From assembly GCA_965602225.1 (NCBI GenBank), contig CBFCYE010000008.1:7053-71052 (forward strand): a DNA stretch of 64,000 bases. The letters run 5' to 3'. This document shows, in pieces, positions 45,704-45,968 of this stretch; position 1 is the first letter of the stretch; each line of letters begins with the position of its first letter. Source of the DNA: an uncultured Gammaproteobacteria bacterium (GTDB taxonomy: Bacteria > Pseudomonadota > Gammaproteobacteria > Tenderiales > Tenderiaceae). The position numbers and the translations under genes are program-made. Below the pieces are notes generated by a model that was not told the origin of the DNA, did no database searches, and was given only the letters and a program-made list of their open reading frames with translations.

Positions 45704-45968
45704 GGGCCTGCTAACACTAATTACAAAATCGCGCCGGCGGCCATTTTTTCGCAGGGCAAGGCGCATTGAGCGTAGTGTACTTGCGTACATAAACGAAAAT
45801 GCAACGCTGACCTGCGGAAAAATGGCCCCGTCCCTTCGGGTTGCGCCCCAATTAGGGCTATGCTGCGTTTCTCGTCGTTCATTTGGAGCAACCAAACCTC
45901 TCTCCTCGCGCCTTGCCTAGCCCTAATTGGGACAGCAACGCGAATTTGTAATTAGTGTTAACGGGCCC
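45704..45968. mobile_element. MITE-like element or long structured inverted repeat (265 bp) with ~30-bp terminal inverted repeats
   Basis: Left end GGGCCTGCTAACACTAATTACAAAATCGCG and right end CGCGAATTTGTAATTAGTGTTAACGGGCCC share 27 of 30 positions as inverted repeats. Nested inner inverted repeats are CCCCAATTAGGGCTA/TAGCCCTAATTGGG and GCAAGGCGC/GCGCCTTGC. No ORF of plausible function is present. Confidence 0.5.

Follow-up and report, generated by a model that had tools for sequence, protein, structure and literature searches.

A probable miniature inverted-repeat element with IS5-family ends and a predicted Y-shaped core between the yqaA-like and ClC genes of a gammaproteobacterium

Neisseria and enterobacteria have small palindromic elements, the Correia elements (NEMIS) in the former and the ERIC/IRU elements in the latter, which are non-autonomous and make a TA duplication. 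These elements lie within transcription units or near them, and when transcribed by read-through they can form long hairpins. The element that we describe here lies in a window, by which we mean the whole stretch of 64,000 nucleotides of gammaproteobacterial DNA that was analyzed, and it is like the Correia and ERIC/IRU elements in that it is small, palindromic, and non-autonomous and is associated with a TA duplication. It differs from them in that it has no sequence resemblance to either, is about twice as long, and has a core of predicted Y shape that contains a pair of inner hairpins and a junction that is conserved, and in that a candidate partner insertion sequence (IS) family has been identified for it. 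Over about 20 terminal nucleotides the element is identical or nearly identical to IS5-family ISs of the IS427 group (among them IS1248, ISPpa2, and ISPaes1; PMC3281130) and to unnamed IS5-family elements of Halomonas sp. A020, Aeromonas caviae, Azotobacter, Pseudomonas aeruginosa, Polaromonas JS666, and E. cloacae, and the likeness extends to the TA flanks (a 2-bp duplication in CTAG/YTAR) and to the length of the repeats, which is similar. Unlike these ISs, the element has no transposase gene, its interior is unrelated to theirs, and its pairing reaches about 30 bp and into subterminal sequence that is absent from the IS. A bacterial MITE, or miniature inverted-repeat transposable element, that resembles it in having IS5-family ends and a TA-containing target is MITEPsy1 of Pseudomonas syringae, the ends of which match ISPsy2 and the target of which is CTAG/YTAA (PMC3189936). 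MITEPsy1 is 100 nt long with a 4-nt duplication and ends GGAAGGTCTGAAAAAGCC, and no structured core has been described for it (PMC3189936). Identity of the window element with MITEPsy1 or MITEPsy2 of P. syringae was rejected because the ends and the length of the duplication differ. We propose that the window element is very probably a non-autonomous MITE of 265 bp with a 2-bp target duplication, which is moved in trans by a small IS5-family DDE transposase of the IS427 type. The transposase would bind the ~20-nt ends, excise or copy the element, and insert it at TA.

The element between the yqaA-like and ClC genes

The element spans positions 45704-45968 (265 bp), and its sequence, checked against the window, is as the original prediction described it. 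The left terminal inverted repeat, GGGCCTGCTAACACTAATTACAAAATCGCG, is at 45704-45733 on the plus strand and the right one, the reverse complement of which is GGGCCCGTTAACACTAATTACAAATTCGCG, is at 45939-45968 on the minus strand; the two match at 27 of 30 positions, as had been claimed. The 16-mer core of these repeats, TAACACTAATTACAAA, has two sites in the 64-kb window where 0.04 are expected by chance, and they are the two ends of the element. The nested inverted repeats that had been noticed inside the terminal ones are also real: one has 20-nt arms at 45739-45758 and 45808-45827 that match at 90%, the other has 17-nt arms at 45847-45863 and 45915-45931 that match at 94%, and a further pair, GCAAGGCGC/GCGCCTTGC, is present in the element sequence.

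It had been predicted that these repeats would fold the element into one long imperfect hairpin, and this did not hold. The terminal repeats pair to form the outer stem of a Y, the minimum-energy fold, which also has a short junction and two inner hairpins. Inner hairpin 1 (45739-45827, plus strand) consists of the arms of the first nested repeat and a 49-nt interior that is partly paired. It is helix 6 (the right hairpin) in the family alignment A2, the orientation of which is that of the window minus strand, and compensatory changes are found there. The junction motif, CCGTCCCTTCGGGTTGCGC (reverse complement GCGCAACCCGAAGGGACGG), is at 45828-45846 on the plus strand and is near-invariant in 10 of 10 family members; in the predicted fold its GTTGC pairs with an invariant GCAAC beside the right repeat. 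Inner hairpin 2 (45847-45931, plus strand), which we call the B module, consists of the arms of the second nested repeat with the interior CTCGTCGTTCATTTGG-loop-CCAAACCTCTCTCCTC. This interior is the best-conserved part of the family and gave the first detection of the Halomonas and Azotobacter relatives, while the stems of the B module covary both between the window and L005 copies and family-wide. Folding, which the original prediction had suggested as a check, gave z-scores of about -10 on both strands. The RNA folding energy is -133 kcal/mol for the plus strand and -137 kcal/mol for the minus strand, against averages of -81 and -85 over shuffled sequences (z = -10.4 and -10.2; 0 of 200 shuffles equally good), and the DNA folding energy is -79 kcal/mol (z = -10.5).

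The location of the element was likewise confirmed. The yqaA-like gene, which encodes a DedA/VTT-domain protein, is at 45272-45700 on the minus strand with its ATG 1 nt from the flanking TA of the element, and the ClC chloride channel gene, divergent from yqaA, is at 46082-47845 on the plus strand. A DedA protein of Candidatus Tenderia electrophaga shares a 90%-identity cluster with the window yqaA. That the element has no plausible coding capacity was borne out: it is 265 bp long without a transposase gene, and its internal ORFs are not conserved in frame or length among copies. A protein-coding reading was rejected since the window and L005 copies differ by a 1-nt indel that disrupts the frame and the ORFs range from 4 to 72 codons. 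A search for other copies in the 64-kb window, including one with an nhmmer family profile, found none, and the same profile gave no additional copies in the window and all the fetched loci.

Empty sites, sister copies and the target site

The regions orthologous to the yqaA-ClC spacer were fetched through ClC homologues and come from a Chromatiaceae MAG (L028/L029), from an ENA metagenome contig with 91% DNA identity to the window (L030), and from L031/L032. The spacer is 381 bp in the window and 107-160 bp in all four related genomes that were examined, and the alignment of the window spacer with those of the relatives has one clean gap that exactly covers the element. Since the relatives read CTG, TGG, or ACG at the empty site, the original target in the window is not exactly reconstructable. 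Copies of the element are found in relatives at other loci, where the original prediction had proposed to look for them. A 20-mer from the repeat was used as an exact pattern to scan contigs of one genome per species, and this gave a copy of 266 bp that is 90% identical to the window element in a Chromatiaceae MAG (L005, contig CALZIQ010000010.1). On one side of this copy is an exbD-like gene and on the other the gene that follows; the orthologues of these two genes are contiguous in the window, and the flanks are 72-82% identical. The filled site in L005, gggtTA[GGGCC...GGCCC]TAgag, corresponds to the empty window site gggTTAAtc, in which the TA at 36928-36929 belongs to the stop codon of the exbD-like gene. 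A second copy, which is ~85% identical to the window element, is in L030 between argS and a SPOR-domain gene, and here too the window is empty, the target being the TA of the argS stop codon at 52935-52936. The L030 copy (16808-17137) has ~60 extra nucleotides inside one hairpin, and its inner terminal repeat is GTGTGTTCATTACAAA in both arms. The three related genomes therefore have three insertion sites among them, and for each of these a reciprocal empty site is found. Since the spacer is empty in the relatives and the sister copies are at sites that are empty in the window, the window element is an insertion.

The same comparison bears on whether the element could be a structured non-coding RNA or a cis-regulatory leader of yqaA or ClC that is native to the locus; a long structured non-coding RNA was the alternative that the original prediction had offered. 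The very stable fold, the strong covariation across the family, and the position in the yqaA leader region would all suit such an RNA. Against it, none of the relatives examined, not even L030 with its 91% identity, has the element in the orthologous spacer, and there are copies at unrelated loci elsewhere. In addition, both strands fold equally well, an Rfam scan of the element at E up to 10 gave only noise, and a promoter and terminator scan inside the element found no such site. We consider a native RNA or leader extremely unlikely, and if so the annotation of the yqaA-ClC spacer is settled as a recent transposon insertion and not a regulatory RNA.

By inserting here, the element came to lie 1 nt upstream of the start codon of yqaA and has separated the gene from its native leader and upstream region. 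The gene is now split by 269 bp of strongly pairing sequence from the 107-bp region that it formerly had in common with ClC, and GCAGG of the terminal repeat reads as the sole Shine-Dalgarno-like sequence left for it. All three Chromatiaceae-type insertions are 1-2 nt upstream of a start codon; this codon is GTG in L005 and ATG both in L030 and in the window, where it is that of yqaA. A further difference among these genomes concerns a methyl-accepting chemotaxis protein gene at 38048-40078 of the window (HAMP and MCPsignal domains), within the segment 37896-40154. This gene is absent from L005 (3278->3351), and only fragments of it are found in L030 (3763-4259).

Besides L005, the 20-mer scan of one-genome-per-species contigs gave four chance matches. 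Two of these, L001 4647-4669 and L002 1104-1125 in Bacteroidia MAGs, are exact matches of 22-23 nt to the terminal repeat that lie in a coding region conserved from one of these two MAGs to the other and were rejected, and the remaining two have nothing beyond a ~20-nt match to the element. A degenerate repeat pattern matched 14 stretches in metagenome contigs and one in a viral contig, and none of the 15 contains the element. Since these pattern scans of genome and metagenome collections give one true relative, the subfamily of the window is rare in public data. The plasmid-borne part of the wider family came from BLASTN against plasmids, in which the hairpin interior was matched first and whole elements afterwards. 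Ten members were found, in Chromatiaceae-like MAGs, Halomonas, Azotobacter, Pseudomonas aeruginosa, and IMG/VR contigs. Halomonas sp. PA16-9 has two copies that are 98.5% identical to each other at different loci of one replicon; Azotobacter chroococcum has copies on two plasmids and a decayed remnant on a third; one copy is on the megaplasmid of the clinical P. aeruginosa PA83; and two are on IMG/VR contigs. Their length is 265-270 bp, except that the Azotobacter HR1 copy is truncated and the one in L030 is enlarged. All ten have terminal inverted repeats, and they share one architecture. Between the repeats, which start GGGCCTGTT(A/G)AC, the order is a subterminal CGCGTTGC, a first hairpin, the stem of which is 19-20 bp, then the junction motif GCAACCCGAAGGGACGG, and lastly a second hairpin, the interior of which is CTCGTCGTTCATTTGG-loop-CCAAAC-TCTCTCCTC. 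The family was not found in Rfam or in the literature searched, which included searches for its terminal sequences and for IS427-related MITEs. It is apparently a previously unnamed and undescribed MITE family that spans several orders of Gammaproteobacteria, from Chromatiaceae-like MAGs, Halomonas, and Azotobacter to a clinical P. aeruginosa megaplasmid, and a likely mobilizing IS group can be named for it.

Flanking target-site duplications, which had been proposed as a check on the MITE reading, are present in most other copies but are imperfect in the window. TA is found at both ends in six of the nine other members (L005, the two Halomonas copies, Azotobacter NCIMB, P. aeruginosa, and the UViG). 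In the window, the left copy of the duplication is the TA at 45702-45703, and the right flank is TG at 45969-45970, one substitution away from TA and presumably a degenerate copy of it. The other deviations are CA/TA in L042, AA on the left in L030, and the truncated copy in L023. Points that speak against a MITE moved in trans are the imperfect flanking repeat, the presence of a single copy in the 64-kb window, the rarity of the subfamily in public data, and the lack of an IS5-family transposase in the window and in ~85 kb of related contigs. The sister copies at other loci with their empty sites, the TA flanks, and full-length ISs with the same termini speak for it, as was originally predicted. 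In most copies C or T precedes the left TA and A or G follows the right TA, which gives the target context YTAR. A 4-bp duplication of YTAR was rejected since it fails in five of seven MITE copies, where the two flanks have unlike outer bases; the inner G and C are invariant. Because Y+TAA and Y+TAG both fit YTAR, insertion would often occur at the TA of a stop codon, as it did in two of the cases above.

Candidate mobilizing insertion sequences

The ~40-nt ends of the element were searched against plasmids at a permissive threshold, and the short matches fell exactly at the termini of annotated IS5-family elements. Thus, the related full-length transposons that the original prediction had proposed to look for do exist, as IS5-family elements with the same ~20-nt termini, outside the source lineage. 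It is the outer ~20 nt of the MITE repeats that match the termini of these IS5-family elements of 830-860 bp, and the ISs are themselves flanked by C-TA...TA-G. The IS of Halomonas sp. A020 (pHA020_1) is 859 bp long with a 249-aa transposase and the ends TAGGGCCTGTTGACGTTTCAT and ...TTTCAC, and the Halomonas MITE and this IS have identical ends, TAGGGCCTGTTGACGTTTCA(T/C), the difference between left and right included. Similarly, the ends of the Azotobacter MITE match those of the IS on pAcX50d. The end of the window type, TAGGGCCTGTTAACACTAATT, matches at 20-21 of 22 positions the ends of ISs in Polaromonas JS666, P. aeruginosa pWTJH2, and E. cloacae plasmids. The single-ORF transposases of Halomonas A020 and Aeromonas (A. 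caviae) match NF033580, an IS5-family model, at 268-282 bits (cut-off 110) and also match DUF4096+DDE_Tnp_1. The Polaromonas, P. aeruginosa, and E. cloacae ISs, which are ~830 bp long with two overlapping ORFs, are linked to those of Halomonas A020 and Aeromonas by tblastn at 30-37% amino acid identity; their family is given by this and by their RefSeq/GenBank annotation as IS5 family transposase. The IS427 group comprises ISs of 832-865 bp with 2-bp direct repeats and frameshifted ORFs (PMC3281130), and the end-matched ISs, with their ~830 bp, overlapping ORFs, and 2-bp duplication, agree with it. Their assignment to the IS427 subgroup, made on these tabulated features (PMC3281130), is provisional. 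The core of the MITE is unrelated to the interior of the ISs, and the ends alone are common to both. In the window and ~85 kb of related contigs no IS5-family transposase was found, and a partner IS in the source lineage is putative.

Since IS630-family transposases also duplicate TA, the element could instead be a Tc1/mariner-IS630-type (Stowaway-like) MITE. The TA duplication in a CTAG-like context suits this, and in two Azotobacter plasmids an IS630-family IS directly abuts the element (L022 1604-2790 and L023 1667-2855). The ends of these adjoining ISs, TAGTGTTATGACACAGC... and TAGTGTCTCAACACAC..., differ from those of the element, however, and the two IS630s abut opposite ends of the MITE, as would be expected if they simply target CTAG. 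Together with the ~20 identical terminal nucleotides that the MITEs have in common with the IS5-family elements, this makes mobilization by an IS630-family transposase very unlikely, and the likely mobilizer, judged from the termini, is a DDE transposase of the IS5/IS427 type.

Several other observations were made on these ISs. The two adjoining IS630s suggest that IS630-type insertion has a hot spot at the CTAG that the end of the element makes with TA and G. In P. aeruginosa pWTJH2 (L037 744-2955), the IS with window-type ends is inserted at a CTAG inside another transposase gene, the ORF halves of which are at 744-1514 and 2314-2955, and the frame of this gene is restored when the IS and one TA are removed. 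In A. chroococcum pAcX50d (L036 2502-4692), an IS4-family insertion splits the IS5-family partner element, and a 117-nt inverted repeat (3851-3967 and 4684-4800) is found around the remaining part of the transposase.

The conserved core

RNAalifold was run on an alignment of nine copies, and the pairs were counted on the structure that it predicted. For the family it predicts a three- or four-way junction in which 94% of the cells are paired. Changes on both sides are found in 50 of the 92 pairs, compared with 5-12 when the partners are slid by 1-3 columns, and the observed covariation score was reached by none of 500 shuffles. The inner half of the terminal repeats covaries too, both arms being, for example, GTGTGTTCATTACAAA in L030 and TTAACACTAATTACAAA in the window, and a divergent IMG/VR member takes the same fold. 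The most conserved sequences are the junction and the unpaired interior of the B hairpin, whereas the terminal repeats vary and match different IS subgroups in different hosts. On the predicted structure, the Y-shaped core fold is one that is kept by compensatory changes and appears not to be derived from an IS.

These findings raise the question whether the core is a functional payload, such as a structured RNA, a signal in single-stranded or cruciform DNA, a mini-ORF cassette for ribosome loading, or a transposition enhancer, which has paired repeatedly with different ends of the IS5/IS427 type. That the core is unrelated to the IS interiors and the ends alone are shared would fit this, as would the covarying stems and inner repeats and the fact that copies from Chromatiaceae-like MAGs and those of Halomonas, Azotobacter, and Pseudomonas have the core architecture, the hairpin interior, and the junction motif in common. 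The purine-rich strand of the B module, which has GAGGAG and, in nine of ten copies, then ATG, and the position of all three Chromatiaceae-type insertions just before a start codon also count for it. However, the length of the ORF is not conserved: the ATG opens ORFs of 4-5 codons in four copies (the two Halomonas copies, P. aeruginosa, and L042) and of 33-72 codons in five, and in Azotobacter HR1 it is replaced by AGG. With respect to the neighboring genes, the counts for the two orientations of the element are 6 and 2, not a significant bias. Complementarity of palindrome arms can also be kept by templated repair without selection for function. The excess of G-U over A-C cells, 32 to 16, was counted on the strand from which the structure was derived and so does not identify the RNA strand. 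With a sample of ten copies, we regard a functional payload as a rather unlikely explanation. If it were true, the core would not be inert filler between transposase-binding sites, it would have spread across gammaproteobacterial orders, and a mini-ORF cassette would limit polarity. On our preferred explanation, a MITE moved in trans, the core may be of use to the element itself, as a binding site for a host or transposase factor or as an aid to synapsis, for instance, or alternatively it may form a stable hairpin when it is transcribed by read-through. In the family there could be a small test case for why some bacterial MITEs keep an elaborate conserved fold and for how one core acquires the ends of different insertion sequences.

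The hairpins themselves are not arranged in the same way in all copies. When positions 45739-45931 of the window were compared with L021, L022, and L024, the Halomonas, Azotobacter, and Pseudomonas copies, the A-type and B-type hairpin interiors of the Chromatiaceae-type copies were found to be swapped, mirrored with respect to the outer and central modules. A rearrangement could account for this, as could mirror-image decay from an ancestor that was a perfect palindrome. The solo-repeat match on A. chroococcum pAcX50e was considered as an autonomous element and rejected, as it is a decayed remnant. What this remnant (L026 3501-3560) keeps is the terminal repeat along with the subterminal sequence and the junction motif; the first hairpin is cleanly deleted and the remainder is lost.
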